The notes beneath the pieces are model-generated. The model had not been told where the DNA came from. It ran no database searches and saw only the letters and a program-made list of their open reading frames with translations. From Trypanosoma brucei (lineage: Eukaryota), in NCBI GenBank assembly GCA_000002445.1, contig CP000070.1, positions 640,001 to 704,000 on the forward strand: a DNA stretch of 64,000 nucleotides, written 5' to 3'. The position numbers were made by a program, and so were the translations under genes. Of the stretch, positions 4,519 to 62,864 are shown piece by piece. Every line of letters begins with the position of its first letter. The first letter of the stretch is position 1.

Positions 4519-5092
4519 CTGATTTGTGCACAAAGAGGAAAAAGAAAAAGGGAAGTAAAGCCCCGCTGCAGAACCTTCTCCTCTTATAACCGCAACAAAA
4601 AATACGCAACCAGTTAGCTATAAGTTCATTGCCGCCCCACCAAATACAAACAAGAACAACCTCCAGTACAATCTTCTTCCAATTCTCTTCTCCCATTCCG
4701 TCGCTCCTTTTCTTTCCTTTCACTTTCTTTCTCGTTTACCCTCATCACGGAAAACCGACACCTAATTTGATTTCCCTCCATCCCCCTTTCCGCCCACACT
4801 TTTGTTTTAAACGTATACCTGACGGCCGCTCGCACATTATAGCATGGAAGAGAGGAACGAAGTGGTAAACCCCATTTTTTTTTTTTAGAATGGGTGAGAC
4901 CCACGACAGGTAACCACAAAGAAGAAGTTTAGAAAAGTAAAGTAAGAGGTATCCCCGTAACAAATTTCGAATCGAACCAACATGTAAAAATACCTGCAAA
5001 GCCGCATCACGCGGGGGCGGACAAGTAATGCGATGCGTTTGTGAAGCACTGACGGAAATGGCCCCTAGGAAACAGAAGGACAGCTGGAAATA

Positions 5093-22803: not shown

Positions 22804-22865
22804 TTCTACTTTACCTTCCACCTATATATATGTATATGTATATGTATATGTATATATATATATAT
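22804..22865. repeat. Compound (TATATG)n/(TA)n microsatellite.
   Basis: The sequence reads 'tatatatatgtatatgtatatgtatatgtatatatatatatatat'. It lies in the 2.3-kb gene-free interval 21307..23661. Confidence 0.95.
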
Positions 22866-23661
22866 TTTTTTTTTATTTATTTATTTTTTTTCCAACATCT
22901 CCTCTACTTTTCTACGTTTCTTTCTTTTCCTTTTAATTTCCTCCATTTTTTTAATGTCACTTTTCTTTGGTTGTTCCTGCATCCCTTTCTTCTTTTTTTT
23001 TTCCTCCTCCTCCCCATTTCATTTATCCCTTTCACGTCGTTATACCTTTGATTCCTCCTTTTTAAAGAAACACGCATCCCTTTCCATCTCTCTTTTCTTC
23101 TCTATCACCTTGTCTCCCTCATACTGTATCTATGGAAAACCCTCTATATACGAACGGAAGTGGGGGAAAAAAACTGAAGAAAATAATAGCAACAAATGCA
23201 TAAAAATATATTTATATATTTATATGTATGGACGACTGTTAAACCCATTTCCCCGTCCTTTTCGGGAAAAAGAAAAAAGTAACAAAATAACTGAAACCAC
23301 CATACAAACTTCAACTGCCGCTGACACTACTACAAAAAAAAATGCACATGCACATATTGATACAACTTAAGTGAAGTGTATATTTTATGAAAAGACCTCC
23401 CCCCCCTCTTCCCACCCCCAAAAAAAAAGGAATTGAATTTAAATATAAAATTTTCACGCATGCATAAGTGTGTGCAATTTCGTCTGTTTGTTTATGTGAC
23501 AAAATTACAAAATAGGGTGATAACAATAACAAAGTACCCATGAAAAGCACGGAATCAGCATATATATATATATATATATATATATAGGTAAATAAAGGAG
23601 GATTGTGTGAATTGTTCATGTCATATCTTCTTTTTGTTGGTTCCTCTATGGTGATTCCGTT

Positions 23662-38338: not shown

Positions 38339-38975
38339 TTCCTTTAAACACAGTCTATTGCCTTTGCGCTACACCAGTCTTAGTTAGGTATGTGCAATGA
38401 TATCGTAGCCCCCAGTGCGTATCTGGTTTTGCAGTTGAGGGGTCGTTCTCGCTTAGTTGTATTGTTCGCTTGTTAATTGGTCACTTATCACTTTCTAACA
38501 TTGATAAATGGAACCCCAATGGTGAAGCAGTGTGGTACCAGTAAACAAACAACAGAAAAGAGTTGAAAGAAAAGAGGTAACGGAAATTAAAGGGGGAAAA
38601 ACAGAAACATAGAAGGAGACCCCCAAAAAGGGAAGCAGCAAATAACTGCAGCAAACGGACAGGCAGGTGCTAGACAGGCAAGCACCTCCCTCCTCTGGAG
38701 ACGGTTCAACATGGATCACTTACACACATTTTTCCTCTTCGACTTTATCACGCTCAATTCGTTTTGTGCTTTTTCCAGGGGTATAAAGGAAAGGAAAACA
38801 CAAGAAGTGCAGTGTCATCTGAAATTGTCAATATGAAATGAAATCAAAACAACAAAACAAAAAAGAAAGGTAAAGTAAAAGGCAAAGTAAGAAAAAAGAA
38901 AAAAGAAAGAAAAGTGAAGAGAGAGAGAGAAAACGGAACCTTTTTCTTTTTCATTCGGCACTACTCGTAATTCCA
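36956..38975. repeat. Tandem segmental duplication, copy 1. The coiled-coil gene plus its 5' flank.
   Basis: 38212..38975 is essentially identical to 42243..43005 at a constant offset of 4031 bp, about 760 bp. This spans the first roughly 40 codons and the upstream region. The plus-strand ORFs 38212..38400 versus 42207..42431 and 38495..38719 versus 42526..42750 translate identically. 37425..37780 is near-identical to 41204..41560 at offset 3779. The 3' ends of the two genes and their downstream flanks are diverged. Confidence 0.9.
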
Positions 38976-42369: not shown

Positions 42370-42989
42370 TTCCTTTAAACACAGTCTATTGCCTTTGCGC
42401 TACACCAGTCTTAGTTAGGTATGTGCAATGATATCGTAGCCCCCAGTGCGTATCTGGTTTTGCAGTTGAGGGGTCGTTCTCGCTTAGTTGTATTGTTCGC
42501 TTGTTAATTGGTCACTTATCACTTTCTAACATTGATAAATGGAACCCCAATGGTGAAGCAGTGTGGTACCAGTAAACAAACAACAGAAAAGAGTTGAAAG
42601 AAAAGAGGTAACGGAAATTAAAGGGGGAAAAACAGAAACATAGAAGGAGACCCCCAAAAAGGGAAGCAGCAAATAACTGCAGCAAACGGACAGGCAGGTG
42701 CTAGACAGGCAAGCACCTCCCTCCTCTGGAGACGGTTCAACATGGATCACTTACACACATTTTTCCTCTTCGACTTTATCACGCTCAATTCGTTTTGTGC
42801 TTTTTCCAGGGGTATAAAGGAAAGGAAAACACAAGAAGTGCAGTGTCATCTGAAATTGTCAATATGAAATGAAATCAAAACAACAAAACAAAAAAGAAAG
42901 GTAAAGTAAAAGGCAAAGTAAGAAAAAAGAAAAAAGAAAGAAAAGTGAAGAGAGAGAGAGAAAACGGAACCTTTTTCTTTTTCATTCGG

Positions 42990-45900
42990 CACTACTCGTA
43001 ATTCCTCTTTACATTTTTTCTCCCATGTGGTTCTTTGTTTTCCTCTCTGTTGTCATTATTACCGCCGTCCACCGCGTGTATGAGTGCGTTTCTCGTTGTC
43101 ACCCTTTTTTTTTTCTCTCCTATGCCCTCTCAACTTCACCTTTACTTTATTCATTCACATAAATCATTCTTCCATTGAGTCATCGCCACTTCCCTCATTA
43201 TTAACGTGCATCAATTGCTCATTCCCATCCTCCTTGATTGAAGCGTGATAAGCAGGGAAAAGAAGAGACATGGTAGTTTTTTTATGACGGCATTAACAAC
43301 AACGGCGGTGGACAGGGGTGGAGGGATAAAACGACAAAAAAGTGTCAGTTAAAAAAAAAATCCTTATTCCTAGCATGTTTTTTTTTCTCTTTTTCTTATT
43401 TTCTCTCTCCTTTCGTTTTCTTTTTCCTCAGTCATTTTACTACCGTATGTCCGAGTATATATATGTGTGTGTGTGTGTGAAGGAGTGAAGGGGTGAAGGG
43501 ATGAGGGGGTGAAGGAGTGAAGGGGCGAAGGGAACCAAGGTTTTCATTTCATTTTTTCCCCTCCCCCTTAGAAGTTTCAAAGGAAGCAAATGAAAGAAAA
43601 GAAAGGGGGGAAATGAGGGACTGCAGAGGGAGGAAAATGCATTACTATAGTCGCGTCCTCTCATTCTCTTTTCCCACAATTTCCCCCCTCCCCTCTTCCT
43701 TAAGAACTCCTTGTACTCCTCTTATCATCATTGTTAGTGCACACGTGCGTTTGCGTGTGAATATATATATATATATATATTCATTTATTTATTTATTTAT
43801 TCTTTCATTTCTTTCACACACACACACACAAGCACAAGCACAAGCACATTTATACTCATACATACACAATTTTATTATTTACCTTACCACTTCCACAACA
43901 GAAAGCCATACGTAGTGACAGACGATCTTTTCTCCTTTTTCCCTTCTCTCGCATCTCTTCCTTAGTAAACAAAACAATATTTTCTCCTAATTCCACGCGT
44001 ATGCGCATATGTTATTGTTGTTGCTCGCATTCATCTTTTATCTTTTATCTTTTATCTTTTATTATATATATATATATATATATATATTTCCTCATTGTAC
44101 TTTATTCAACTCTGAGGTGTTCTGCATCGTTTGTTATCCCTTTTTGCGCCCTTTCATTTATTTATTAGCTGTTTTTTTCATTTTTTTTTTCTTTTCGTTT
44201 TCCCCCTTGTTATTCCTTCCTCAGCACAACCTTAACGTTCTGTAACAATTTCGGCTAAAGAAGGGGGAAAAAAAACAGGGGGCCCTCAACCACACATTAC
44301 GGGATGATAATCAAATCAGCAAAAGTGTTAATGGAGTGTGGTGGGGGTGGTAAAAGCGCTGTAGCGGCTGAGAAACGGAAGTTATGAAAACAACCAATAA
44401 AAAAAGGGGGAAAAGGAAGATAGCCGTAGAGAACGGGCTGCTTCAACTGTTTTACATTTCCTTCAAAAATATGTCATCCATCCTCTGCCTCAGCATTTTA
44501 AAAAAAAAAAACGATATCATTACATATTTTTTTTTAAATACCTTTCGTTGCCTTGCATTTGCATTAGTGCCGTCCACTCAATTTATTTTCCTTTTTCCTT
44601 CCGGTGCGCCTTTGTTTTCATCTCCTTTAAGTTTTTTTTCTTTTCCTTTGGTTCCTTCAGATTCAACCCTTTATTTTTATTTTTATTCCTATTTTCTTTC
44701 CCCTCCACGGTGGCGCAAAAGATATATCATTAATTAAATTTATTTATTTACTTATTTTCGTCTTCCCTTTGCATCAGCATAAAAATATATTTAGTCAGCA
44801 CAAACAAAAGTGGTAGGAACATATCAAATTAAACGAAACAAAAGAAGGAGAAGGGGAAACCACACACAAACACACACAAAAATACGCAACAAAACAAAAC
44901 ATAATAAAACATAATAAAACAAAAGCAAAATTCCTCAAAAACCGCATAAACAAAAATAACAACAAGAATAAGTGATATTGCATGTATTTCCCCTTTTGTG
45001 TTTATTTCTCTCTTCTTGTTTTTGTTTCCTTTACTTTTTTCCCTGCATTTACTCCCATACACGTACACACGTATACGCATACGTATTCATGGAAATATAA
45101 TATAATATAATATATATATATATATAAACACATTCATACATTCGTGTGTGGCGATGATGATTGGTACCCATAACAATAATACTAACATAAATAGGTAAGC
45201 AAAAATAAAAAGGCGTTGCGTGTCTAACGCCGTAAGGAATATAAAAAAAAAAAGAAAGAAAGAGAATGAAAAGGGGGAAAGGGGGAAAGGGGGAAAGGAA
45301 GGGGGAAAACAAAAAAGACATTTTTTTCCCCCTCCTCCTCCCGTCCCTCCCTCTTTTCAAGAAGGAATACATTTATAAACACACGGAAGGTAAACAAAAC
45401 AAAGAAGAGGGAAAAAGAAAAATAGCATCAATAAAGTAATTAGATGAGAAGGTGTTCGGAGGTTGTTGTTTTTTTCTTGTTAAAGGGAGAAATAACAAAA
45501 ATAGTTAAAATAGTTAAAATGATTAAAATAATAAAGATAATAAAGATAATAAAAATAACAACTGAAATATAAATTAAAACAATTCATAATAACAATAATG
45601 GTAATAAAATCACCACATTCATACTCATATTCATGACAGTTAACTTTCCCTTCCGTTTTCTTATTCATTCTTTTTTTTTTCAATTATCTCATTCCTTTTC
45701 CAGTCCTTTTTGTTCATACTCTCCCTTCCGTCGCTCATGTAACAAACTACTGACAATAATAACAATAATAATGATAATAATAACCTCCAAAAAGAAAAAA
45801 AACAACTCATAATAATGAAAAAAATGATAACAATTCATACAACGAATTAAATATTTCAAGTGATAAATCGAGAATGCTACAAAATATATAAATAAAGTCC

Positions 45901-47887
45901 CCATCGTAGAAAAAAAAACGAAAAAGAGGGGGTGAAAGCACACATTGGGATATAGAATAATGTAACAATTACAATCGTAACAAAAATAAAGATAATAATA
46001 ACAATAACAATAACAACAAAAATAATAAAATAACCGGTAAAAAAAAAAACACACACACACACATAAAATAAAGATAAAAAAATGAATAACAATTCCGAAA
46101 TACTTCAAAAGTTCTTCTTGTTCCCGTTTTTCTTTTTTTTTCTTGACAAACACCGCTTACCTTCACCTTTACCGCAACGAAAACATCAACTAAAATAAAA
46201 ATAAACTAAAAACTAAAAAACGCACCTTCATATAAATTTATCCATACCAGATGTACATTAACCATAACACAAATAAAAATAAAAAGCAAAACTAAGAGAG
46301 TGAGTTAGCAAGTAAATAAAACAATAAAAACAAAAATAATGATAATAACAATAAATTTAAGTGAAGTTGAGGGGAGAACGAAAGCACAAATAAAAAACAA
46401 AAACGAAGAAGCAAAAGGAAAAAAGGTAAAAAGAAAAATAAAAGGAAGGTAAGAGGAGAAGCGTGAAGGAAAGGAGAAAAGGGAAAAGGAAAAGGGGGGT
46501 GCAAAAACGGCGAAAATGCACCTCTTTTTATTTTATTTTTCCCCCCCCCCTTAAAAAACAGCTTAAAATAAAACTATCACCGCAATGACAGTATGTTGTG
46601 TTTTTGTTTTTGTTTCGTTTTGTTTTTTCCCCCTCCTTTCTTTTTTTTTGTATTTTTATCACTTTTTTTTTTTGGTCTTCCCTGATCCTTTTCAAAGCTC
46701 TAAGACATTTACCGGAAGGAAGATGATGCAAAGCAGTAAAATAAAATAAGAGATGACTCCAAATGAAAATAACACCAAGCAAACAAAAAACAAAACAAAA
46801 GGGTAAACAAGAGGAGAGAGCATTCTGATTGGGAAGGTGATCATAAAAACGAAACACAAAAAAATATATACGAGAGGTGGAAATAAATAAAACTAAACAA
46901 AAAAAAAAGCAAAAGTAAAAATAAAATAACTTTCATTTTGGGGATGGGGGGAAGTGCATTATAACAAAAATAGAAAATAAAAAAAGAAAAAAAATATTTT
47001 CAATAATAATAATGAGAGAAAGAGAAGAGAAGAAAAGAAAAGAAAAGAAAAGAGAGAGAGGAGAAAAAAAAACCTTCAGTCCCTCCCCTCTTCATCTTCT
47101 TTCCTTCTCCCAATTGTCTCCTCTTGATAAATCCCATTTTATAACCTCTCACCACCCTTTCCTTTTCTCTCACCCTCTCATTTATTTGTTTCCCTTTTAT
47201 TATTTTGTTTTGTCTCTTGTCTTATCACTGTTATTATCATTATTATTATTATTTATTTTTGGCTCTGTGCCGCCCCTATCCCTTTTTCATTTCAAAGAAA
47301 AATGTTATAATTAATGACGTAAGGTAATATGAACATGTAAGCTAAAAGAAAAAAAATCCGCCTCACAAACGGTTACACTGCTTCTTGCTTTTTTTCTTTT
47401 TTTTTTCTTATCTCGCCTTCCTTCATTACCACGAACAATAAAATAGATTTCAGTCCATTTTCCTTTAATTTTTTCCTGTCACGCTTAGGGCGCCAAAGGT
47501 GCATTTTCTTTCTTTCACTGTTCTGTCCCTCCCTTTTTCTTTCCTTTTTTTATTTGCTCAGAACGCAGTCTGTGTTACTCCTTTTCCTTCAGCACATGTA
47601 TCGAATTTTCCACTTGATCCGTTACATTCTGTTTCACTTCGTTTCCTCACCTTACTTCTCTTTTCCTCCTTTCTTCTTCGCTCCCTTTCTTTTTTTTAAA
47701 AAAAAGGGTTATTTCACCCTTCTCCGCGTTAGTTAAACTCTGTTACGCTACTGTTTATCGCACAGTTCCAGTAATTATCTTCACATTTTCCCTTGTTTTC
47801 CTCTGCGATGTAGCTCCGCACGCTAAATCATAATACAAGCTCCCTACTGCTTGCGTGTGCGCGTACACATACACATACAAATACAAA
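42990..47887 (-). promoter_or_regulatory. Gene-free low-complexity interval of about 4.9 kb downstream of ZC3H-like gene A. Presumed long 3'UTR, intergenic polypyrimidine and trans-splice/polyadenylation region, and 5'UTR of coiled-coil paralogue B.
   Basis: The plus strand is strongly purine/A-rich, for example 'gggggaaagggggaaagggggaaaggaagggggaaaac' at about 45285. The transcribed minus strand is therefore pyrimidine/U-rich. The only ORFs are low-complexity artefacts. Comparable intervals follow gene B (49166..53073) and gene C (54565..60737). Confidence 0.5.
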
Positions 47888-49165
47888 TTAATTCCTGCCC
47901 CTCCCTTCCCCTTTTTCAATACCACGATCGGTACCATTGGTTCCATAAGGGTTGTAATGCCAGCGCTCCCGACCACCTTTACCGTTTCGAGTCACCACCA
48001 CAATGTTTGGTGTCATGCCGCAACCCTGCTCAGCCAAGCAATCACCAGATGTGCTGGGATCGACGTCGAGCGATAAGTTGTCCGAAGGAAAGAACGTACT
48101 CGAGACCTGGCGCATGTGAATGTCACTTACCTGCCGTGAAAGCGAAAAAGGGATATGCGCCTGTCCACAGTCCACAACGGAATGAGCTTCGGTGCAGGAG
48201 CTGGGATCGCAGCATCTCACAACTGCGGGTTGAGTAGTAACGGAGGCATCTCCAAGTGTCACGCTGCGATTGGCCCCAAACAGCGAACCTGTTGGGCTTC
48301 CGGGACACGTCCAGCCACCCGAGACGGGAGTCGGTGCATCGCAGGCAGCCGCTGCTGCAGGTGGAGGTGGCATAGAGGTACCGGAGGCAGTCACGACAAA
48401 ACAACCGCCGGAAGGTGAGGAGGAAGGAGGTTTCTTCCATGAACGCGGGCGCTGACCCAGTGTGAGGCCCCGATCACACCTCGCCACTTCCTTGCAGATG
48501 TGGAGGTAATTGCACTCCTCCGCGTAGCGGCAGCGATCCTGCACGTGTAGGCGGCAGAGCGTAATATCACCAGCCTCCAGCACAAGGCACGATGGGGGAG
48601 TGCCGAATGCACGACTTTCCCACTGAGCCCCATCTTGTCCCTCCGCTTGGGGTGTGGAATGAAAAAGAGCGTCCAGCAACCGCGAAATGGGAGTGGTGTA
48701 ACTGAAACGGGCGAGTGGAATGTAGCCGCCTCCGTAGGTCGCATCCGGGACGTGAACCACAACGCGCGACATCCATGATCGGTTATCCAGGGCATTGACG
48801 TAATCACGGTCCCCATGCAGCGCACAGCATATGGGTAGATAGTCCACTTGACTTCGAAGCGCAGCCACAACATTCAGCGCAGCATGCACCTGATGGCACT
48901 GTGTACCCTGCCGGCAGCGCCCATCCAGGAACAGCAAGCAAAGGCTCGGGATTGTCGTGCGTTGGTGCGCCCGGGTGGGGTACACGCAACTGAGTGGGAT
49001 CCGTAATTTGCGCGTGGCGGGATCCACAACGACCATGCACTCAACACCTTTTTCAAAACACATGATATCCCTCCTGGTTTCGAGTGGCGAGGCTACGAGC
49101 TGCATAATTGTACCTTCGGTTGTATCTAAGGTCACCTTCACAGTCTTATTCGTTGCTCTTTGCAC
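47888..49165 (-). CDS. ZC3H20: Tandem CCCH zinc-finger RNA-binding protein, ZC3H20-like (gene A of the ZC3H20/21/22 cluster).
   Basis: 425 aa. Two C-x7-C-x5-C-x3-H fingers: '[19 protein letters not shown]' and '[19 protein letters not shown]'. The inter-finger block is '[64 protein letters not shown]'. The symbol rests on remembered synteny and relative size. It cannot be verified here. Confidence 0.75.
48684..49040. repeat. High-identity tract shared with 54014..54370, a putative gene-conversion tract covering the CCCH inter-finger region of ZC3H-like genes A and B.
   Basis: 48684..48881 is 100% identical to 54014..54211, 198 bp at offset 5330. Only scattered substitutions continue to 49040/54370. 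Sequence immediately below 48684/54014 is unalignable. The listed small ORFs 48874..49056 and 54003..54254 translate to the same peptide. Confidence 0.9.
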
Positions 49166-51446
49166 CTTTTTGGTGCTGGTTGGTGCTTATTGCTGTTTCG
49201 GTCTTTCTCAGGACAACCTACAGTCGGTGGTTCAACCCTATGCTATCCGACGAACTTATGTATTCTTTTTCTTTAGCTTGATTATTTTGGTTGTTCTCTG
49301 CTGTTGGGCTCTTTACTTTTGTAAATTCAAGCGCGTACGCGGCGGAAGCTGTGATTAATCACAACGAGATGGAGATAACGACAATAATAGTGATAATAAC
49401 AAGAGGACGAGAGAAGAAGTGAAATGGGAGCAAGAAGTGTGGCAGTTAAAAGGGGGGAAAGGGGGTAACCAAGACAAATAGAGCTCCAGCGGGTTAGGAA
49501 TCCAGCACCCAACACCTACACAACCCATCGCACAGCTCATTTCACGGATGATGAGGAAAGAAGAAGAAGAGGGAAACAGATAATGAAGAGAAAGTGGGGA
49601 CAAGGCGGCACAAATAACAATGATAAAAAGGCAAAGAGTAAAACATTTGAAACGCCACAAATACATAAATATATGTATAAAGAAATACACATAGTTTAAT
49701 AATAATAATATAAGGAGGTCATAGTACCTAGTCTATCACCACTTCACCAGCAACAGCCACCCACGCGAAATGTTTCAGGAAAACTGTGCACAAAGATCCG
49801 AACACACACATGCATCTGAATGAAGCTGCACACAGTAATATATATATACTTATTTTTTTTCGAAAAAAAAAGGGGAAACGCGCACCTATAAGTATTTGTG
49901 GTGGCGTTTGTGTGTGTTTACTTACCTTTTACCATCGTAACCTCCTCAGAATTCTATTACTCACCTTTCTGTTACCCCACGGGCACCGCGCAACCACTTG
50001 GTGATTATTCTCTCGTAGTCAGTAAGTCATCATTACTTCCGTTACCGCGCAAGAGCGTAAGAAAAAAAGAAAAGGACTTTCCCTCACACTTCCATTCCTT
50101 TCCTTTCCTTTTGGTTCCCTAACATTTCTTCCTTTCTTAATCTCTATTTCGCTTACGCAGATACATAATGCCTTAAATTTCCTTCAAAGCAACCCGATGC
50201 TACAACCAAGTCAAAGTAAGATGTAAAAGAACCAAAAGGCGGTAGACGGGGGACGGGAACTAAGATAGAGAAAGGAAATGAAAATGAAAATGAAAACGGG
50301 AATGGGAATGGGAAGAAAAAAACAAAAAGGGCAGCACAAACAAATAAATAAAAATAAAAAAGATAAAAATAAAGAAACAACCGGTTAAAGAGAGTCGGGT
50401 TTTACCTCCTTTCCTCATTTCTTTTTCAATCGACACGTATGCAAATGCAAGAATGTGCGAATGAAATTGGCCCAAAAGTGCTATCAGAAGCAATATGAAA
50501 ACGAAAAACGGTCCCCGAGTAGAGATAAAACGGAATTACGAACAGGTGGGGAAAAGAGTGCAGAAAAAAAAAATGAACGCGTGTTCATGTGTGTGGATTG
50601 TCCAAAAAAAAAATGACGAAAACACTTCGGCTGGGTTGAGGGAAACAAAAAAGATATATATATATATATATATATAACAATTATAACTATAGTAACTATA
50701 ATGATAGATCATTAATACCTCCGACTGCTGCTGTAATAAAAATAATAACAATAATTATATTGAAATGAAGGCAGCAACGAAGTTGGGCAGGAAGAAAGGG
50801 AAATGGAAGAATGAATTTGAGAGAGAGGAAAAGAAAAGAGAAAGGCAAGCGCAATAAAAGAGACCTGGTAAATATATACATACATTCATATATATATATA
50901 TATTAAAAAATAAAAAAATAACCGGTGCATTGTCGAAACAAATGCCCATTCACTAGTTAAAAAAAATTTAAAACAGCAACAACACGATAGGTACAAAATA
51001 AAACTTAAGAAAAAGATGAAAAAGGAAGAAGGTGTAATGGAGGAAGTCGTCGTAATGACTGAGTGAATGAATAACCGAGGTTTAGAAAAAAAAACATGAA
51101 TGAAACAAACACAACGCACCGACGACTCCCCTAACCGCACATACAAAAAAAACTACAAAGGTAAAGAAGAAGAAAAAAGCTGAAGTTGTACCTAATGAGG
51201 AAATTTTAAAAAATCAGTTAAAACATAATAACTGATAATATTTATATGGAAATCGAAATCCCCCACAAATGGTACATTAATATTACAGGGAAAGGGAATG
51301 GTTTTCAACAAAAAAAAAAAGAAAAAGAAACGCCTCTCTACCGTATTAAACAAGGAACGGGATAACATCACATATGCACACATGTAAAGGCATCTCACCA
51401 CTTTATTGTCACAGCCGACAAACTTATATCCATCTCACTCATTCAC

Positions 51447-51466
51447 TCAGTCAGTCAGTCAGTCAG
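51447..51466. repeat. (TCAG)5 tetranucleotide microsatellite.
   Basis: Direct reading of 'tcagtcagtcagtcagtcag'. Confidence 0.95.
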
Positions 51467-53073
51467 TTAGCCAATCATTCCTTTATTTACTCAACAGCTT
51501 CAAACAAACACGCGTAAAAACACGCGCCCACACATAGGAAATAAAGAAGAAAAAAAAGAAATTCAGTTCGTCCGGAAAAAAAAAACAGGAACACACACCG
51601 TGATCCTGTTACTTCCCATTTTTTCCCCGACTCCAATAGATATTTATTTTCTTTAATATCTCTTGATATCATTTATTTTTTATATTTAATTATCAAAAGG
51701 GTAAAAGAAAAACAAGGAGGAGAAACCATGCGCTACCTCACCCCTCTCCCTTTCCTTCAGTGCCTGGTGGCACTGTTTGACGTTATACAAAAAATATGTT
51801 TTTCACCTCTCTTTATTTTTTGTCCCGCCCCTTCCCAGCTCGCCATACGGGGTACAATTCGATCAATTCAGAAGCACACAGATGGGGAGAAAAAGATGAG
51901 CAGGTGCAAACAATAATAAATTAAACAAATAAAACCGCGCCCTCAAGTCCACAGATACCGAACGAGAAGATTAAAAGGCAAAGACACGCGTATGCTTGTC
52001 AGCCAATTCTTCTTCTTCACTTTTGCAGTAGTTTCGTTCTTATATTAAGATGCCTCACCTGAAGGGGAAACAGATAAACGACAGGATACAACACAATGGG
52101 GAAGAGCAAAATAAAATAAATAGAAATGCAGCACAGTTAAGCATCACACAACTCTAATAATAATAATAATAATAACCATTATACTGCTGTTTCTTCCCAC
52201 CTGTTTCTCCCTCACTCATTCCTATCAAATGTTAAGTTACCTACACATTCCTTTCTTACACATAGAAACAAATGACACATGCCCTTTCACACGTCAGTAA
52301 GTTTCTCCTTTTCTTATATATTTCTCTTCCATACCCTTTTATGTACAGTGAAACGCTTAAATACTTTCTTCTTTCCTTCACTTCTCTTTGCATCTCATTC
52401 ATATGTTTCGCTGCTTCTCTCCTCTCTTCTTTTCTTCGGTTCACTCCGATATCAACGAAGACATCTACCAAGTACAACCCCACAGGACCCGAAATGAGAG
52501 AAAGCACAAATGAAGCGATAGAAGAGGCAGAGTAGGAAGCACAAAAGGTGAGTTCACACCCGCTTCACAAAAATGAAACATTTCTTTTTTTCTTATTTCG
52601 TATTATTCTCTACGACAGTATCCTTTACCCAAAAATTAAAAAAATACATATATATATATATTATTGCATAATAACAATAATATAATCCAAACATAAAAAG
52701 GGAGATTTACGCTCCTTCAACACCCCTCCCCTCCCCTCCTCACCCCTTACCATCATCCAGTAATGTCAGCATATGTACAAATACAACAGTTGTATTAACA
52801 AAAAAAAAGATGACAGCGATGCTAACATAAGTTATTTGCCGCAAGAAGGGAGTAACGAACGCATATAGCCGAGTGACAACAAAAATAACAAAAAAAAAAT
52901 AGAAACAACGTGTTCCCACAAAAAAAAATGAGAAGGAAATATACAAGAGCTATAAGAGAAACATGGAAAAATTATAATAACAAAATAAAATAAAACGGAG
53001 AAAGATGCACTACAAAAGTTATAACCAAATAATAACGAAAGTGGTGGTATGGAAGGGAACTTCTTCACAATGC

Positions 53074-54564
53074 TCAATCGCTGATTCCTCCCGTTGGAGT
53101 CACACCGTATGGATTGTGTTGCCAGGCGCGTGCAGAGACAGACGCTGAAGACACCGACTCGACCGGCTGTGGAACTGATGACGAAGTCCCATTGGGGCAA
53201 AGGTGAGTGGAGGAGCACTCATCTCCGGGACAGAAATAACAATTAGGTCCGTCACTACCGTAACCGTTCCGGCTGCCGTACGCGTAACCGTTGCAACCGG
53301 AATAATTGTTGTTGTCGGCGTAATGGCAGTCGCTGCACGACCCAACGAATGCGCATGGTGCGCACCCAGACTCAGGTGAGCTCCAGCGATCCCAGCAGCC
53401 TCCGGCCCCATACATTGCTGCATCCTCCCTTGCTGCTGCTGTTGTTGTTGTTGAGGTTGTTGTGGAAGAATAGCAACGCGGAACTCCGGGGTGCCCTTGG
53501 ACAAATCGGGGGGCGAGGGACGGCAATGGTGCAGCATCCATGCGACTTTCCATGTAGGCACCGGTGGGGTACCGCCCAGAAACCCAAGAGCAGTCGCTGT
53601 TAATATCCGACACGGCGTTATAACTCATTGAGCCCTCGTACGATCGAAGGGGGAATGGCGTCTGGTATTCAACCGTGGGGTATGAAAGGGGCCTTCCACG
53701 TACACGTTGTTGACGGGAGACCGAAACGAATACAGAACCCTTCTTTGCTCCTCGTGGGCCGGGTTCTCCCCCATCACGCGCCTGTGACGTGAGCGAGTAA
53801 TCACCGCTGCCATTATTGACATCGACAACAATTTCTTTGCAGATATGAAGGAAGATGCACTCCTCCGCGTATCGGCAGCGGTCCAGCGTGTGAAGGCCAC
53901 ATATTTTAAAGTCACATGCGTTTAAGACCATCCGCTTTGGATGTCCCCCACCATCAACTGCCGCAACACTGACGCCACTCTCGAGGCGAGCGTTGACTTC
54001 CCTCAATATCCTGGAAATGGGAGTGGTGTAACTGAAACGGGCGAGTGGAATGTAGCCGCCTCCGTAGGTCGCATCCGGGACGTGAACCACAACGCGCGAC
54101 ATCCATGATCGGTTATCCAGGGCATTGACGTAATCACGGTCCCCATGCAGCGCACAGCATATGGGTAGATAGTCCACTTGACTTCGAAGCGCAGCCACAA
54201 CGTCCAGCGCAGCATGCACCTGATGGCACTGTGTACCCTGCCGGCAGCGTCCATTTAAAAACAACTGGCAAAGGCTCGGGATTGTCGTGCGTTGTTGCGC
54301 CTGGGTGGGGTACACGCAACTGAGTGGGATCAGTAATTTGCGGGTGGCGGGATCCACAACCGTCAAGCACAAAACGCCCTTTTCGTCGAGAGCAAGGTGC
54401 CTTTCACCACCAGCTGGTGCGTTTACCGAAAAGTAGCGATGAGATTGTGGATGGCTCATAATGGTGTCCCGGTACTGTAATGACCTCTCTTCCTGGCGTT
54501 CAGTTGAAACTCCTCTATGTTCTTTTTTCGATGGCTTTAGTACTCCTCGCGCGGTCTCTCCCAC
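53074..54564 (-). CDS. ZC3H21: Tandem CCCH zinc-finger RNA-binding protein, ZC3H21-like (gene B of the cluster). Close paralogue of gene A.
   Basis: 496 aa. Fingers '[19 protein letters not shown]' and '[19 protein letters not shown]'. The inter-finger block is identical to gene A. Outside the zinc-finger region there is little similarity to gene A. A Thr/Ser-rich low-complexity C-terminal half contains '[12 protein letters not shown]'. Confidence 0.75.
54014..54370. repeat. Partner copy of the high-identity tract at 48684..49040.
   Basis: See the entry at 48684..49040. Confidence 0.9.
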
Positions 54565-57500
54565 TCACTGATATATATATATATATATTGCCTTGCTGAG
54601 TGCGCTTTGCTTCCTTCAAATTATGAGCTCCAACTATACGTGCGCAAACCTTGTCTTCCGGACTATTTTTTATACGAATAAGTAGCCAGACAACGTAACT
54701 AACTCTGTCTTTGTTCTTACCTTTGTTATGATGACTTGTGAACTTCCGTTAGTTGTTCCATTAGTTGAGGGCAGGGGAGATGGAAAGTATTTGAAATAAT
54801 CTCGAGGCAACCAAGTGCAAAGTAATTTGTGACGACGACTCGAACAAGTGGAACTACACCGCTGCTCGCAGTGCTCTCGATTACACACCTATTTTCGCAT
54901 TGTCGTTTTGTCGTTGTTTCAAGCCCCTTTCCCCTCTTTATATAAATATATAAATAAATAAATATATATATATATATATCTGTCCTTTGTTTTGCTCTCC
55001 TTGAAGGATCCATTAGCTGAGTCGCTAGATGACATGCACAGACTTCAAATAAACAAGTAAAAATAAATAATGGGGAATCGGATTTGTTTTTTACAGCCCG
55101 GCGGGAAAAAAAAGCCAGGAGCCAAAGGGGCAAAAAAAAAAAAAAGACGAACAAACAACGCGAGCGGAGGGCGATAAGTGCAGAATTGGCATGCATGTGT
55201 TTGCGCATATATGAAACAAAAGAAGAGAGAAGTTGATTAGATGAAGAACGGCAATACGCAATGGCCACAAAAAGTTTAATATACCAAATATGCTGGCTTC
55301 ATGCATTCAATATATTCTTCACCATTCTACCGCTTCTCTTCGCGCAGTACATATAATTCCGTCGCATGCGTACACTTCCACACACGATGTTATTGATCTC
55401 GATATTACAAGTTAACCACAAAAATAAGGGGAAGGGAAAATAAAAGCACGCGTATGCAAACACATACACATATATGTATATATCGAAAAGTTATTTTCAA
55501 AAAAATCATCAAGGGACATTTGCTTCAGTGGTCTCACATACAGTCCCTTTGTTTTTTCCCTTTTCCGCAGTGATTCTGTTTCTCGCTTCGTCCCAACTCG
55601 TGTTATTATTTTTTTTATCTGTGTTTTTATTTGGTCGTCTCCTTTCACCTTCTATTTGGGCAAGCTGCTTTTATTGGTACATTTTTTAAATTTTTTTGAT
55701 TGTGGCTGCGGTGCCTTTTCTGTTTATTATTACTCTCTTTCCCTCACTCTTCACTCCCCTCTTCCTCATCCTCCTTAACGATTTATTTAATGCTCGCTGA
55801 TTGTGTTGAAGACTTAAAGATAATATAAAACAATAAAATATAATAAATAAAAAAATATCAAGTGAATGCTAAGGGGAAATGGTAATTTTTTTAAATTTTT
55901 TGCCTCTCCCTTCGGACTACACCACATCTGTAAAAATGCCGTAGTCCGCACCTTTCAAAGCCCAAAAACAAAAAACATATAATATATAAAAAGGAGAAAA
56001 TAGTGTCGGATTTTCCGAAAAAATAGTGCGAGAAAACACAAGTGATTGGTGGTCCCCTTGTCTTCCTTTCTGTTTCAACCATACGGATGATTTTCTCTCA
56101 CGTCGTTACTTCTGGTGTTTTTTTTTCATTTCTTTTTTTTTTTGTAAAGGAAAAAATAATGTGTGGGACTTTTCCATATTTTTTTCCATCCTTGTGAGTT
56201 TATCTTCACTTCATTACCTTCAAATCACTCTACTGGTTTTTTCCTTCAATCATTAAATAAAAACAAAAAAGAATTAAGGGGAGCCGAGGACGCAAAAACT
56301 TCACAAACGCATACAGTAATTTCTGAAAGAAATGTGCGCTCAGAGTGTGATACAAATGGCACGTTCCACACTGTCCTACATTCTCAAATGTAAAAAATAA
56401 AATAAAATAAAACGCGACGATGAGTTGAAGAAATGGTATGAATGAAAGGCAACGAAAAGAAAATGGAATTGAATAGAACGGGCGAGAGTGGAGCAAAACA
56501 AAAAAGAAAGTGTTCAAAAAGTAAGGACGCATATTTTATTATTTTTTTCCTCCCTCCTCCATCCCTCCGCAATATTCATCCCTCTTTTTACAGCACAATC
56601 CACTGTTGCGTACTTTCCGCATATAAAAGTCACGCATTTCCATCTTATGCTCCCTACTCCTCCTCATTATTTCATTGTGAACTTTCCATTTCACCTATCC
56701 TGTATGTTTCTCTCCACCACTTTTACTCACGCTGCAGGCCCGCACCCTCACACGCACACACATGTTCCTCTCCTCTTTTTTTTTTGTCTTATATTATGTT
56801 CGCTATTCATTGTTACACCGTTGTTTACTATTTGAAATAATAATAATAATAATGGTTAAAATGTACATATGTACGTATGTACATATTTTAAATATATTCA
56901 TTTATACTTATTTTTAATTCACATACGTGCTTGCATGTTTGATCTTCAGCGTTGGAGCCATATTTTTCCAATCCGCATTATCATCCGTTTCTTCCACTGA
57001 TGTTGTTTCCTTTTCTCCTCCTTTTTCGCTTTCCCTTTCGTTTCCTTTTTTTTTTCTTCTGTTACGCTCTGTTCTGTTCTGTACTTTGTTTGGCTGTTCT
57101 GCTTCACTCACCATCATGAAACCAAAGTTGCTCCACTTATTTCGTTTCACCTCTGCAAAATGTAAATAAATAAATAAATTTTCTTATTTGAGTTCAGTCA
57201 TACCAGATGAATTACTGATTTAAAACGAATTTGGCCAACAAATGCCTGCCCGTCTCCCACATACTCACGCACATATACGAACATACGCAGTTGCCTTAGT
57301 ATATATTTTGTCCACACACTCTTCTTCTTTCTTCTTTTTTTTGTTTTGTTTTTGCCATTTGCTTTACTTTTTTTTTTCAAAAAAAAACTATTTGCTCTCT
57401 TCATTGCATACACCCACCTATACACAATACATATATATATATATTAGTTTGCACCTGTATGTGGATTTAATTCGACACAATATAATTTATTACTTTCACT

Positions 57501-60500
57501 CTTCTCCCTGTCTGTACTCGTCACCAAATCGCTCGCTTCGCCGGATGCCGCTGTTGCCATTGAAATTAATATTTTATATCCTTTTCTTTCTTGTCTTATC
57601 CCCCCGTCCACACACACACACACACACACACACCACCCTGCCACAAAATGCATCCCACACACAAAAAAAAAACAAAAAAAAAAAGAAAACACGAAAAAAG
57701 AAAAAGGGAGAGAGCGACCCCGATAATTAAAGTTAAAATCATTTTTAAAAAAAAAGGAGTAAGACAGAAACACAAACATAAACATAATCCTGCATTATGC
57801 GCCTAAGGCCGTATTCGTCCATGATATGGAATATTATGGAGGAGGGAAGGAAAAACAAAGCAAAACAACATTCACAACAGACCAAAGCAGTTACGCACAG
57901 TAGCATGGAACCAGCGGGGAAAAGGAGGGTTTTAAAAAAACAAAAAAAAAGAAAAAGAAATACAAATGGAAAAATGAAAGAAAACAGGAAGAAACACAAA
58001 AAAAAAAAGGAACAAGAACAAGAACAGGGGAAAGGAGGGAAAGGATGGAAAGGAGGTGACTTATTCGGTCAATGACCGGGAAAAAAATAAAAAATAAGAA
58101 AAGCAAAAGAGAAAAATTAAAGAATAGCAAACAAAACAAAGAATGGAATGGAATGAGAAACGGGTAATGAGATTGGAGAGACACGAATATATTCGGTCAC
58201 TTGACACCAACACCCGTAGGGGGTAAGGGGAATTTGATGGAAATTTGATGACAAACAAACGTACGAATGACTCGCGGTCAAAATAAATAAAAACGTTAAA
58301 TGAAAAGAGGGTTAATAGACAAGAAAATAATTATAATCATAATTGTGCTAACAATAACACACCACCGATTTCATCACACCGGCCATTTCTCCCGTGCTCA
58401 CACTCATGGCTTTCAACGGCGTGGAAAAAAAAAAAGAAAATTTTAAAGTAGAAATAAAAGGAAAGGAAAATAAATGCACAGATTGCATCCACCATTTGAG
58501 AAGACATCACGTTGACTCTTTATCTCCTTGTTATTATCATCATTTCATTGTTCTTAATAATAATAATAATAAAAGGTAAAATATGAAGAAAAAAAGTGGA
58601 AAGTGGTCCTTTCGAGAGTTAATTATCTTACATCTAAGTGTTCAGACAGCATAAGTTAACCACGAATTCGATGACGAGAAAGAAAAAATAAATAATGAAA
58701 TGAAGTAGTTATTGCGTTCTTTCATAAATTTATGTATGCATATTCGATCTGACTTCATCTTCCTTAAATCTCTTTCTTCTTCTTTTTTCTTCCACCCGTA
58801 CGCTCCCGTTCACTCCGCAGGCCCCTCGACCTTTCCACTGGTGTTATCGTTGCGGTTATTTTATTATCGTTATCTTTTTGTTCCGCTCAAATGGCGAAAA
58901 GGTGGTGCGGCAAAGAACAGTCAAAGATACAAATATTTATATTGTGTTAATTTTCTTTTTGAAATATATGTATATATAATAAGGTGTGTAGAAATCGTTT
59001 GTCTTTCCTTACGTTCGCATCACGGTTTTATTCTACATGGACATCTGTCGAGGAAGCGAGATACTAACGTGGTGGGAAGGAAGAATAAAACAAGAAAAGG
59101 TGGAACAAACGCAGAACCAAACAAAAAAACAAAGAGAAAACTATCAACCAAAGAAAAATAAAGGGGGAAAGAAAAATCATTATCACGAAAAAGCTGCGCG
59201 ATCCGCGGCCCGATCCCTTTTCTTTAATTCTCCTCCCGCTCCTCCCGTTACGCCCACGGAAGGGTAAAATAAAAAATAACAAAACGCTGAGTGGCTGAGG
59301 GTGTCAAATGGGCGGGCTCATAATAATAATAATAAATAATATATATTTATATTTGATATTTGTAGAAGGGGCTTGGAAATTAATAAAAGGTTGGGAATGG
59401 AGATGGAAAAAGAGGAGAAGGAGAAGGAAAAATAAATGGTAACAAACAAGTCGAGGAAAAGAAGTAAAATAAAAGAGTTTGAAAACAAAATAAATAGGGG
59501 GAACGTGACAGAGAGGAGAACGGGAAGATTAAATAAAATAATATCCATACGCTCTCTGTTTCACCTTTCCCCCATGCACACACACACACATGCATATATA
59601 TCACTTTCTTTGCTTGCAAAATATATATCAATCCCACTGGGCAGGCCTCACAAACAACCACGTGGTAAATTTTTCTAGCATCTGTTTGGATAGCGGTTAT
59701 TATTTTTATTATTATTTGTGTGTGTGTGTGCATGTGTGTGTAAAACCCCCTCCTTCACCACCGATAATTCACCTCGAGTCTCTCCATCATCCCACTTCCA
59801 TTCCCCTCAGCCTCCTCCCACCCCCATGGCCTGGACGGCTGTTATGAAACATACCGATGATAGGAGTCCTCATCATATCATTTTCGAAGTGGGAGGAATG
59901 AGGAAATGAAAGGGAGGATGGAGGCGGCCAAAAATAAATTCAAAAAATAAACAAATAATCAATATTTATGGAGGAAGAATGCTTAAATGGAAAATAAAAC
60001 CAAACAAAAAATATACAAGTATGTAGTCAAGTAAATCATTGCTTAAAGGGGGTGACCAAAATTTGTAAACTGCACCCGTGGCAGCGAAGAGAGAAAAAAA
60101 GAGAGTAAGCTGCTTCTGGGTGTCCCTTCCTCCAAATTTTTAAAAGTTCGATCGCTCAATAGCTTTTACTTCGGTTTAAATAGCCTATGTTTCTCATTTT
60201 CCTCTTTTTTTTTTGTCGTACTTTCCTTTTGCCTTCTTTTGTTTCCGATTTTTTCTTTCAGCTTCTAAAAATTTAACCTTTGTTCAAGCGACGGAGTGCG
60301 CCTTTGAGCCTTCCGTTGCCATTTACAGCCACCAAAACCCTTCATTTCGCCGCTCATTTCTCATTCCCTTCTCCCTCACTAATCCAGCACAATTCCCACG
60401 CAAGCATCGCTGCATTTTATGTGGTGCAGCTTCTGATGAGCAAAAACAAGCCAGCAGAGAGGGGGAAACTTCATTATTCAGAACGGGCAATGGAGCCTCA

Positions 60501-60737
60501 ACCGTTATATATATGCGGAAACCATTAAGGGCTAAAGCTCAACGAAAGGACAACTCAATTAGCTATATTCCATTCACGGCCGCCCCCCCCCCCCCACAGG
60601 GTCAGTCGCGTTCACAAGCAAAAGAAATACAAAGGAAAAGGAAAACGAGAAGAGAAAAAGAAAGTACCGACAGCCCTGCGACGCAACCATCCCTATTCCA
60701 ATCGCCATTGTCTTGTTACTTTTTTTCTTTTCTTACC

Positions 60738-62864
60738 TCAAAAGGGTACGTGTAGGGGAACTTGTGAAGGCATATTCCCCTTGCCAGAGCCGTACATTGG
60801 CAAGCACAAGTTGCGAAAGCCGTCTTCCCGACCTGAGACGAAACAGAAGGGGCCGTACGTTTGCCCATCCGTTCCCATCTGCTGCTGCGCGCTAGCAACC
60901 GGTAGTCCCGTTGCAGAAATCATAGGATACATCACAGTTGTGGAAGGCACCAGAACTGTCGACGGCCAAACGGTATGTCCATTTTGCATTGGTTGTGGGC
61001 AAGGGGCTACTGATGACTGCTTCTGTGGAAAATACATTGCACAGCACGGCACAGACGGGGTGCTCACTTCCCTACCACTGATTGGGGTTACGCTCTGTCG
61101 ATCGTTTAAGCTGAACTGTGACGGTGATGGCACGCTTTTCTCCTCGCTTGGGTCGGTGACGGGGAAAGCCACACCGTGCAGCCTCATTGTTGTTGCGAGG
61201 CCGTGTCTGGTTTCGCCGAGAGGGCCATCTTCATAAACAGGTGGCCTCTGCTGAACCAACACATTCCGGCAGGTGGTACCGTCTGAAGTGATCTGTCCAA
61301 CCGTTGGCGACGCACGCGCCGAGAAGGTATTGGTGGAGGCAGAACCGTGTGAAGACAACTTCCCAGAATGAGTTCCATCCCTTTCGCTACTTACTATACT
61401 CCTTCCCTTATGCAAGTGGCTCATCGTGGGTGACTTTGAAGGGTGAAACGCCACAGTCGGATAGTTCTGCTGCTTTCTCCTATTCTGCTGCTGTGACAGT
61501 GCCCCCAAGAGGTCACCCGAAACAACTCTGTTTCCTGTGCTTTCAGTCTTTGTCGGAACCTTACACTGATCCTCACTGCCAGGGTCCTCCAAGTCTAGCT
61601 TTATAGTAGCGACCAGCTCCTTCAACACGTCTCGACAGATGTGCACATACCAACAGTCCGCTCCGTACCGGCAACCTCCCGGTTTACCGTGTAAGCGGCA
61701 GACAGCGCATGTGTTCAGTGAGCGGGACGCATTGTTCTTCAACACAAAGCGTTCCAACCCGTTGGTATATGCCACTCGACTCAGAGGTACCGCCGCGCCC
61801 TTTATTAAGATGGTACGATGGGCATTCGCTTCAGCGTCCCATTTGTTGGCGTTACACTCGCCATGAAAGGCACAACAGTAGGGAAGGCTTTCGTTTATTT
61901 GACGGAGTCGCTGCACCACCTGGGGGTCTATGTGCATTTGATAGCAGCTCGCTCCACGGAGGCAACGACCAGATTGGAAGAGAAGGCACAGACTCGGGAA
62001 GGAAACGCGGCCGCCAAGTGCTTTTGTAGGAATGATGGAGCTGAGCGGCACGTGTAGCTTGGACCGCTGCGGATCAACCACTGGAATTCTCTGCTCTTCG
62101 GTGGGCTGTTGGGGGCCTACTGTTCTACAGTCATTCAATCCATCAGGCGCAACTTTCACCTTGTCGATGGCGGATTCCATCGCTTCTGTAATTGGCGAAA
62201 ACAAGCTCGGCGTAATCTGAGACATTCCAACCTTAACGGCGTCGTGGATCAAGGAACTCTGCACATCTTTCCCCTCCACCTCCCAGATGTTCGGGTTACA
62301 CGTAACCGACCGCGTTTGCATAATGGTAAAGGGATCTTCGCTCTCTGCAGAAAAATCTTTAAAAGGTGATTCAGGCCGCGAAAAAACATGGGCAAGACAG
62401 TCATCTTGAAACTCCATATTATTCTTCTCCTGGTTCGGTAACGCCGAGTTCACCAAAGAAATGGGGAGGTCAATCGTACTGTTCACGTCACCACTTGGAA
62501 AGACAGAGGAAGTTAGACTTCCATCCACTCCCTCCCTGTTTCCAATACTCCTGGCGGCGGGCACTTCAGCTGCGTTATCTGATATCTCCCTCGTCGACAC
62601 CGTTGCGTCACCCCAATCCGTAAGATGGATGAAGGGTGCAGACACACTCACTGCAACACTCCCACCTCGAGGCAATTGACTTGCGCAAACCCCTTTGGAA
62701 GCAGTGCGCCACGCACACCCACCGTCAATGGCATCCAGCTCAGAGGGCACCCCCATACACTCTCCGCCCTGATATTGTTGGGTTGTGCTACTGGATGGTA
62801 TGCCAGCTGCGCGCGAGACATACGTGACGCTACCGGGAATGTTCGATTGTTCGGGAAGGAACAT
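60738..62864 (-). CDS. ZC3H22: Tandem CCCH zinc-finger RNA-binding protein, ZC3H22-like (gene C). The largest and most divergent member of the cluster.
   Basis: 708 aa. Same architecture as genes A and B but diverged: 'CLLFQSGRCLRGASCYQMH' (C-x7-C-x5-C-x3-H), then 'LPYCCAFHGECNANKWDAEANAHRTILIKGAAVPLSRVAYTNGLERF' (compare '[14 protein letters not shown]...[14 protein letters not shown]'), then 'CRLHGKPGGCRYGADCWYVH'. Confidence 0.7.
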   Translation of the reverse strand: MFLPEQSNIPGSVTYVSRAAGIPSSSTTQQYQGGECMGVPSELDAIDGGCAWRTASKGVCASQLPRGGSVAVSVSAPFIHLTDWGDATVSTREISDNAAEVPAARSIGNREGVDGSLTSSVFPSGDVNSTIDLPISLVNSALPNQEKNNMEFQDDCLAHVFSRPESPFKDFSAESEDPFTIMQTRSVTCNPNIWEVEGKDVQSSLIHDAVKVGMSQITPSLFSPITEAMESAIDKVKVAPDGLNDCRTVGPQQPTEEQRIPVVDPQRSKLHVPLSSIIPTKALGGRVSFPSLCLLFQSGRCLRGASCYQMHIDPQVVQRLRQINESLPYCCAFHGECNANKWDAEANAHRTILIKGAAVPLSRVAYTNGLERFVLKNNASRSLNTCAVCRLHGKPGGCRYGADCWYVHICRDVLKELVATIKLDLEDPGSEDQCKVPTKTESTGNRVVSGDLLGALSQQQNRRKQQNYPTVAFHPSKSPTMSHLHKGRSIVSSERDGTHSGKLSSHGSASTNTFSARASPTVGQITSDGTTCRNVLVQQRPPVYEDGPLGETRHGLATTMRLHGVAFPVTDPSEEKSVPSPSQFSLNDRQSVTPISGREVSTPSVPCCAMYFPQKQSSVAPCPQPMQNGHTVWPSTVLVPSTTVMYPMISATGLPVASAQQQMGTDGQTYGPFCFVSGREDGFRNLCLPMYGSGKGNMPSQVPLHVPF

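Follow-up and report, generated by a model that had tools for sequence, protein, structure and literature searches.

The window analysed here, a stretch of 64,000 nucleotides (nt), is part of chromosome 7 of Trypanosoma brucei TREU927 (~640,001-704,000) and carries the genes for ZC3H20, ZC3H21 and ZC3H22, each of which is followed by a long spacer whose nature was examined. The three proteins are key post-transcriptional regulators of the bloodstream-to-stumpy-to-procyclic transition, and ZC3H20 is needed for stumpy formation. The genes are consecutive and correspond to Tb927.7.2660, Tb927.7.2670 and Tb927.7.2680, respectively (Liu et al.). Their naming as ZC3H genes in the original prediction, which was made from the sequence alone, agreed with these gene ids, and weak CCCH zinc-finger Pfam matches were found in the open reading frames (ORFs) of all three. 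The ORF listing placed 18 of the 18 large ORFs of the window on the minus strand; therefore, the window is a single polycistronic unit that is transcribed from right to left. Addition of 640000 to the ORF stop boundaries 40734, 47887 and 60737 gave exactly the published upper ends 680734, 687887 and 700737 of the 3' untranslated regions (3'UTRs) of Tb927.7.2650, Tb927.7.2660 and Tb927.7.2680 (Tb927_07_v5.1). The features of the locus, in window coordinates and in the order of transcription, are as follows.

60738..62864, minus strand: coding sequence (CDS) of ZC3H22 (Tb927.7.2680), a CCCH zinc-finger protein of 708 amino acids (aa), from the ORF, its translation and weak zf_CCCH_4 and Torus matches; the stop boundary 60737 equals the published UTR end 700737.
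54858..60737, minus strand: 3'UTR of ZC3H22, 5880 nt, with 10 UAUUUUUU (RBP10) motifs, from the nanopore-informed annotation Tb927_07_v5.1:694858-700737 and our own motif count.
54460..54857, minus strand: processing region and 5'UTR of ZC3H21 with the poly-pyrimidine tract 54787-54767, from the tract list and the published ZC3H22 UTR end.
53074..54459, minus strand: CDS of ZC3H21 (Tb927.7.2670), 461 aa from the first ATG, from the translation and 100% identity to the 461-aa TREU927 protein; the full ORF spans 53074-54564.
49106..53073, minus strand: 3'UTR of ZC3H21, then the processing region with the ZC3H20 5'UTR (3968 nt altogether), with 5 UAUUUUUU motifs, from composition, motif and tract counts; the 3'UTR end within it is putative.
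47888..49105, minus strand: CDS of ZC3H20 (Tb927.7.2660), 405 aa from the first ATG, from the translation, 99.5% identity to the 405-aa T. b. gambiense protein and the UTR boundary 687887, which corresponds to 47887.
42738..47887, minus strand: 3'UTR of ZC3H20, 5150 nt, in which UAUUUUUU occurs twice (46996 and 46866), from the published annotation Tb927_07_v5.1:682738-687887 and our own motif count.
42349..42737, minus strand: processing region and 5'UTR of Tb927.7.2650 with the poly-pyrimidine tract 42638-42620, from the tract list and the published UTR end; the ATG is at 42348.
42237..43005, minus strand: duplicated block of 769 bp (distal ZC3H20 3'UTR, processing signals and start of the downstream ORF), from self-megablast, with 99.35% identity to 38206-38974.

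Measured between ORF boundaries, the spacers downstream of ZC3H22, ZC3H21 and ZC3H20 were 6173 nt (54565-60737), 3908 nt (49166-53073) and 5518 nt (42370-47887) long, while the remaining 14 spacers of the window ranged from 350 to 2411 nt. The unusually long spacing that had been noticed after each ZC3H gene was therefore real (6.2, 3.9 and 5.5 kb against 0.35-2.4 kb in the 14 others), and a coincidence of the three longest among 17 spacers with those after the three paralogues has, by our own arithmetic, a chance probability of 1/680. The interval after ZC3H20 had been predicted to start at 42990; the interval as such is real, but this start falls within the published 3'UTR of ZC3H20, whose end is at 42738.

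The long 3'UTRs of ZC3H20, ZC3H21 and ZC3H22 have been confirmed by RNA-seq and Northern blot (Liu et al.), and the three mRNAs were named as clear cases of 3'UTRs >4 kb with 2, 5 and 9 RBP10 sites (Clayton 2019, PMC6597758). For ZC3H22, a 3'UTR >5 kb with 9 RBP10 motifs was also reported (Bishola Tshitenge et al. 2022, PMC8982893). The 3'UTRs of TREU927 were re-annotated from nanopore direct-RNA data, and there the 3'UTR of ZC3H20 occupies window positions 42738-47887 (5150 nt) and that of ZC3H22 positions 54858-60737 (5880 nt) (Trenaman et al. 2024). By these published coordinates, and not by new data, both stretches belong to the mature mRNA and end at a distal poly(A) site; the ends lie 5150 and 5880 nt from the stop codons of ZC3H20 and ZC3H22 and not within a few hundred bp of them. 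No published 3'UTR end coordinate was found for ZC3H21, and judging by the tract positions its 3'UTR probably ends at ~49500-49750, upstream of the poly-pyrimidine tracts clustered at 49643-49401. Against a genome median of 400-500 nt, with only 6% of T. brucei 3'UTRs above 2 kb (Bishola Tshitenge et al. 2022, PMC8982893), the 5880, at most 3968 and 5150 nt of ZC3H22, ZC3H21 and ZC3H20 are far above the norm. The original prediction had read the intervals as long regulatory 3'UTRs, which was right and had already been shown experimentally (Clayton 2019, Liu et al., Trenaman 2024); both the observation of the long 3'UTRs and its main interpretation for exactly these genes are already published and are not new.

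The low complexity and the motif repeats attributed to the three spacers were likewise found. The mean trinucleotide entropy was 4.55 bits in the long spacers and 4.81 in the ordinary ones, low-entropy windows made up 48% and 22%, respectively, and the GC content was 0.34-0.37 against 0.40-0.45. The ZC3H20 spacer was the most AT-rich (GC 0.34) and had the lowest complexity of the three. The repeats located were a (CCCCCUUU)n tract at 45318-45243 within the ZC3H20 3'UTR, (AAAGGGGG)x3.6 at 45270-45298, and AATAAAAC with 11/11 window copies inside the long spacers. In addition, (TA)n with five or more units was found ten times, a (TCAG)n tract spans 51435-51467, and the long C runs are C10 (46541-46550) and C13 (60583-60595). 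The description of the spacers as purine/A-rich on the plus strand was overstated and holds for the middle spacer only, the other two being 50% purine. The plus-strand purine fractions of the three long spacers were 0.497, 0.558 (middle, ZC3H21) and 0.500, and the AT skews 0.053, 0.219 (middle, ZC3H21) and 0.053. The middle spacer was thus the sole asymmetric one and was no more so than the ordinary spacers, with their median AT skew of ~0.13. At the 500-nt scale the AT skew in the long spacers flipped sign repeatedly, and poly-purine and poly-pyrimidine runs on the plus strand were near-equal (0.099 vs 0.088). A clear U/pyrimidine bias in the transcript was seen for the ZC3H21 spacer only (pyrimidine 0.558, U 0.386). 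In addition, one spacer of ordinary length (21307-23661, 2355 nt) resembled the long ones with a GC content of 0.36 and a trinucleotide entropy of 4.56, and it contained the densest antisense poly-pyrimidine tracts of the window (8.9 per kb).

The RNA-binding protein RBP10 is encoded on chromosome 8 and acts in trans. It is found only in bloodstream forms, where its binding to UA(U)6 in these UTRs leads to translational repression and decay; the ZC3H20, ZC3H21 and ZC3H22 proteins are procyclic- or stumpy-specific. All three mRNAs are direct RBP10-bound targets, ZC3H20 mRNA is recovered by RBP10 pull-down, and RNA interference (RNAi) of rbp10 raises the (tagged) ZC3H20 protein (Liu et al.). Total and polysomal ZC3H22 mRNA are both lower when RBP10 is present (Mugo and Clayton 2017). 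In our count, the sense strand carried 2, 5 and 10 copies of UAUUUUUU (UA(U)6) in the UTRs of ZC3H20, ZC3H21 and ZC3H22, against 2, 5 and 9 published; a one-base overlap between two of the ZC3H22 motifs probably explains the difference. The 5' ends of the ZC3H22 motifs were at 60013, 59949, 59278, 58690, 58096, 58089, 56399, 56158, 56025 and 55857, which is 0.7-4.9 kb from the stop codon, and those of the ZC3H21 motifs at 52901, 52646, 51796, 50920 and 50912. The sites were thus dispersed along the UTRs. Over the whole window, UAUUUUUU occurred in 36 sense and 13 antisense copies.

In trypanosomes, polyadenylation is coupled to trans-splicing of the downstream gene. The annotated poly(A) sites were located 70-100 nt upstream of the poly-pyrimidine tracts 54787-54767 and 42638-42620; the former, 71-91 nt beyond the annotated poly(A) site of ZC3H22, is because of this coupling the likely splice signal of the next gene. 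Overall, the three stretches can be taken with high confidence as the 3'UTRs of the consecutive ZC3H22, ZC3H21 and ZC3H20 mRNAs of the chromosome 7 polycistronic unit, acting as platforms for RBP10. The only poly(A) site of each precursor would be a distal one, with the poly-pyrimidine tract for trans-splicing of the following gene ~100 nt further downstream. This would leave mature 3'UTRs of ~5.9 kb (ZC3H22), ~3.4-3.6 kb (ZC3H21) and ~5.15 kb (ZC3H20); a processing region of ~0.4 kb and the next gene's 5'UTR come after each of them. Trans-acting RNA-binding proteins use these 3'UTRs as platforms: RBP10 bound to the UA(U)6 copies of ZC3H22, ZC3H21 and ZC3H20 (10, 5 and 2) causes translational repression and decay of the mRNAs in bloodstream forms. 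When RBP10 declines during differentiation, ZC3H20, with the fewest sites, would be released first and ZC3H21 and ZC3H22 afterwards, a timer based on site number that was proposed by the cited authors and is adopted here. The many dispersed RBP10 sites may also keep shortened isoforms repressed, as a 'fail-safe' suggested in Clayton 2019 (PMC6597758).

Some observations weigh against the reading as long 3'UTRs and RBP10 platforms. The density of UA(U)6 was 0.36, 1.28 and 1.62 per kb in the UTRs of ZC3H20, ZC3H21 and ZC3H22 and was judged no higher than the 0.86 per kb of the 14 ordinary spacers, with ZC3H22 alone marginally over the local intergenic rate (Poisson p=0.044). The ZC3H20 UTR held 2 copies where 2.4 were expected under a first-order Markov model. 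In a bloodstream-form reporter screen, two fragments of the ZC3H22 UTR had no significant effect (Trenaman et al. 2024). The published '>4 kb' is not literally possible for the ZC3H21 3'UTR in the TREU927 assembly, because no more than 3968 nt separate the ZC3H21 stop codon from the ATG of ZC3H20. Finally, sense-strand poly-pyrimidine tracts of 16 nt or more numbered 24, 29 and 32 in the three spacers, and some were 59-85 nt long; such tracts are normally processing triggers, and the 3'UTR reading does not explain how they are bypassed.

The first of these points bears on the number of RBP10 sites. Compared with shuffled sequences, UA(U)6 was significantly overrepresented in the ZC3H22 UTR and weakly so in that of ZC3H21, while the ZC3H20 UTR was, if anything, depleted in UAUUUUUU. 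A specific enrichment of UA(U)6 was rejected, as the significance against shuffles was lost against the local intergenic rate. Since the density is no higher than in ordinary spacers, the large numbers of RBP10 sites come mostly from the length of the UTRs and not from specific enrichment.

The internal tracts also form the basis of an alternative which is compatible with the 3'UTR reading, namely that the spacers in addition yield independent non-coding RNAs or shortened isoforms through cryptic internal processing sites, each proposed to consist of an internal poly-pyrimidine tract followed by AG dinucleotides. The 24, 29 and 32 internal sense tracts of the three spacers speak for this. ORF-less processed intergenic RNAs are a general by-product and polyadenylation occurs upstream of dominant sites (Clayton 2019, PMC6597758), and loss of DRBD18 produces shortened isoforms of other long-UTR mRNAs. 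However, the nanopore-informed annotation shows one continuous UTR each for ZC3H20 and ZC3H22, the Northern blots and RNA-seq were interpreted as long mRNAs (Liu et al.), and there was neither an Rfam family match nor any conservation between species that would point to a structured RNA. Such products were considered rather unlikely, though of the alternatives weighed they survive best. Non-coding transcripts had also been named as a possibility in the original prediction. Within the ZC3H20 3'UTR, the minus-strand RNA at 45250-45360 and 47010-47110 was predicted to fold into long purine/pyrimidine hairpins, with energies of -46.5 and -50.6 kcal/mol and z-scores of -2.7 and -2.5, that would sequester two of its longest internal poly-pyrimidine tracts. 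Masking of internal tracts by hairpins as a general mechanism was rejected after inspection of 72 tracts, for which the pairing probability was 0.04-0.93 in internal and 0.09-0.80 in gene-proximal ones.

The original prediction had further suggested an auto- or cross-regulatory module, in which ZC3H20, ZC3H21 or ZC3H22 would bind their own or each other's long 3'UTRs for mutual control. The idea draws on the presence of three adjacent, co-regulated and paralogous RNA-binding proteins that all have long UTRs, and on the slight rise of ZC3H20 mRNA upon ZC3H22 RNAi. Against it, ZC3H21 mRNA was unchanged in the same ZC3H22 RNAi, and ZC3H22 prefers ribosomal-protein mRNAs. The ZC3H21 mRNA is not pulled down with ZC3H20 that carries a tandem affinity purification tag (TAP-ZC3H20), and ZC3H20's own mRNA is recovered 'presumably via the nascent polypeptide' (Liu et al.). 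The tentative ZC3H20/21 motif (G/U)UUA(U/G)CG was not enriched, with 1, 0 and 0 copies in the three UTRs against ~1.8 expected, and blastn at word size 7 detected no shared sequence among the three UTRs beyond low-complexity matches of ~35 nt. With RBP10 as the documented regulator, the module was left unsupported and was regarded as very unlikely. As ZC3H20 and ZC3H21 are tandem duplicates, shared UTR sequence was conceivable, but paralogy of the three UTRs was rejected on the same blastn result, limited to the ~35-nt low-complexity matches. The two genes do share a 347-bp block over the zinc-finger region (ZC3H20 48684-49030 and ZC3H21 54014-54360, 96% nucleotide identity), and no DNA similarity was found outside this block, the 3'UTRs included. 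This pattern suggests gene conversion, or strong constraint, confined to the RNA-binding domain.

Comparison with a second assembly of the T. brucei group (GCA_003543875.1) showed collinearity over 21 kb at 97.5% identity. Substitutions amounted to 0.87-1.08% in the UTRs, compared with 0.47-0.55% for the CDSs and 1.17% for one ordinary spacer, and there were 5-6.5 indels per kb; within this group, the UTRs are under no special sequence constraint. On chromosome 7 of T. b. gambiense DAL972, collinearity ended at a gap of 100 N (L007 13662-13761), 2.4 kb into the ZC3H20 3'UTR (window 45453), and unrelated opposite-strand genes (nitroreductase, NPR2, kinesin) followed beyond the gap. A real synteny break was set aside here, as the position coincides with the gap and is most likely a scaffolding artefact in the low-complexity UTR.

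Across genera, the gene order ZC3H22, ZC3H20/21 and Tb927.7.2650 homologue was kept. The spacers after the ZC3H genes, in gene order, had the following lengths.

T. vivax: ~5.0, 3.4 and 5.0 kb.
T. cruzi: 4.8, 5.7 and at least 3.0 kb.
Leishmania infantum: 8.0 and 8.8 kb.
Leptomonas pyrrhocoris: 2.4 and 7.3 kb.

The 2.4 kb after ZC3H22 in Leptomonas was the exception to spacers of >3 kb across species, and the neighbouring upstream spacers in T. cruzi measured 0.6-1.5 kb only. No conservation of spacer sequence was detected between species in the T. vivax, T. cruzi, L. infantum and Leptomonas pyrrhocoris comparisons, and UA(U)6 was not significantly enriched in the orthologous spacers of any other species. 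The long spacers recur without sequence conservation and therefore length rather than sequence is suggested as the conserved property. It is tentatively proposed, as a lead from the spacer lengths in the species compared, that selection on this locus in Trypanosomatidae may act on UTR length and not on any particular sequence. A literature search, which was not exhaustive, found nothing relevant on cross-genus conservation of UTR length at the locus. If length is selected, it could set a low mRNA abundance, impose a checkpoint on processing or export, or accumulate low-specificity binding sites by size. In L. infantum, the two spacers flanking the ZC3H20/21 orthologue shared blocks of 1033, 858 and 536 bp with 99.7-99.8% identity, at L004 ~4526-6884 in the first spacer and ~13549-19322 in the second. 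These blocks are dispersed repeats in presumed UTRs and might be retroposon-derived (SIDER-like) elements.

The same comparisons bear on neutral expansion, by which the spacers would be functionless low-complexity DNA that has grown by replication slippage and is tolerated by the mRNAs. Such a history would fit the low complexity with its many microsatellites, the UTR substitution rate at the level of the ordinary spacer together with the frequent indels, the lack of sequence conservation between species and the background density of UA(U)6. It is contradicted by long spacers at orthologous positions in five genera or species despite complete sequence turnover and by the experimentally shown binding and regulation by RBP10, and it fits poorly with long 3'UTRs being a class property of mRNAs for RNA-binding proteins and kinases. 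Neutral expansion was therefore given little credence, marginally less than mutual control by the ZC3H proteins.

The least probable alternative, that unannotated small protein-coding genes or clusters of small nucleolar RNA (snoRNA) or transfer RNA (tRNA) genes occupy the spacers, is effectively excluded, although several ORFs of 100-180 aa are present there and a few short ORFs are called at these positions in the T. b. gambiense annotation. The original prediction had seen no credible ORF in the three intervals, and this held in the Pfam, codon and cross-species analyses. The longest spacer ORFs (154-180 aa) were of low complexity and gave no Pfam match above the cut-off. All ATG ORFs of at least 80 aa in the spacers had negative codon log-odds (-0.15 to -0.53, with GC 0.32-0.44) against +0.15 to +0.51 for the 18 real genes, and tblastx and tblastn between orthologous spacers gave no cross-species protein match for spacer ORFs. 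ARAGORN found no tRNA or tmRNA gene, and no Rfam match reached the gathering score anywhere in the window; in the Rfam E-value scan the best sub-threshold matches scored 20-32 bits against cut-offs of 58-230 and fell on low-complexity purine/pyrimidine hairpins.

At the distal side of the ZC3H20 3'UTR, the low-complexity stretch is bounded by the duplicated block of 769 bp at 42237-43005. Like its copy at 38206-38974 (99.35% identity), the block runs from the end of a 3'UTR across the processing signals into the first codons of a gene, the two genes being tandem paralogues with the ORFs 36956-38338 and 40735-42369; the poly(A) sites at 42738 (ZC3H20) and 38707 (Tb927.7.2650) are at homologous positions of the two copies, offset by 4031 nt. 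The two ORFs also share 37412-37899 and 41191-41677 with 94.5% identity. Within ORF 40735-42369 (Tb927.7.2650), coding tandem repeats of SELKSDRKS(M/T)RE(I/L)S units were found at 41936-42240, and its CDS showed the highest divergence between strains in the region (2.4% substitutions). In the screen of Trenaman et al., positive selection of bloodstream forms led to strong enrichment (log2 fold change 5.5, false discovery rate 0.052) of a fragment at 42235-43963 (Tb927_07_v5.1:682235-683963), which comprises the distal 1.2 kb of the ZC3H20 3'UTR and the downstream splice signal.

That the long 3'UTRs are the route by which the RBP10 switch controls ZC3H20, ZC3H21 and ZC3H22 is established knowledge. 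What is left to the present analysis is that site number as a by-product of length, and length kept without sequence, would sharpen the question of why kinetoplastid regulator mRNAs carry multi-kb UTRs. The three stretches agree with the published ZC3H20/21/22 3'UTRs (Clayton 2019; Liu, Kamanyi Marucha and Clayton 2020; Trenaman et al. 2024) in locus, coordinates and motif counts, and differ from them only in the 10 instead of 9 motifs counted for ZC3H22 and in a ZC3H21 UTR of <4 kb, with nothing substantive otherwise. A further known case is the RBP10 mRNA itself, whose 3'UTR of 7.3 kb (Bishola Tshitenge et al. 2022, PMC8982893) is likewise the multi-kb UTR of a developmental RNA-binding-protein mRNA, but with the opposite stage specificity (up in bloodstream forms) to ZC3H20-22. 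The RBP10 3'UTR has six mapped independent regulatory segments, and its processing and export are under the control of DRBD18; the literature examined contained no comparable dissection of the ZC3H20-22 UTRs. In the general 3'UTR 'code' of T. brucei, the two tract types have opposite effects in bloodstream forms, translation being favoured by A-rich poly-purine and lowered by U-rich poly-pyrimidine tracts (Trenaman et al. 2024), and the mix of both tract types in the three spacers matches this code. The ZC3H21 UTR, with U 0.386 and pyrimidine 0.558 and a procyclic-specific gene, is like the insect-stage up-regulated class of U-rich 3'UTRs (Trenaman et al. 2024, Fig. 7), whereas the balanced UTRs of ZC3H20 and ZC3H22 (0.50) resemble the class in which both tracts are dense, which was tied by Trenaman et al. 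to up-regulated translation in bloodstream forms.

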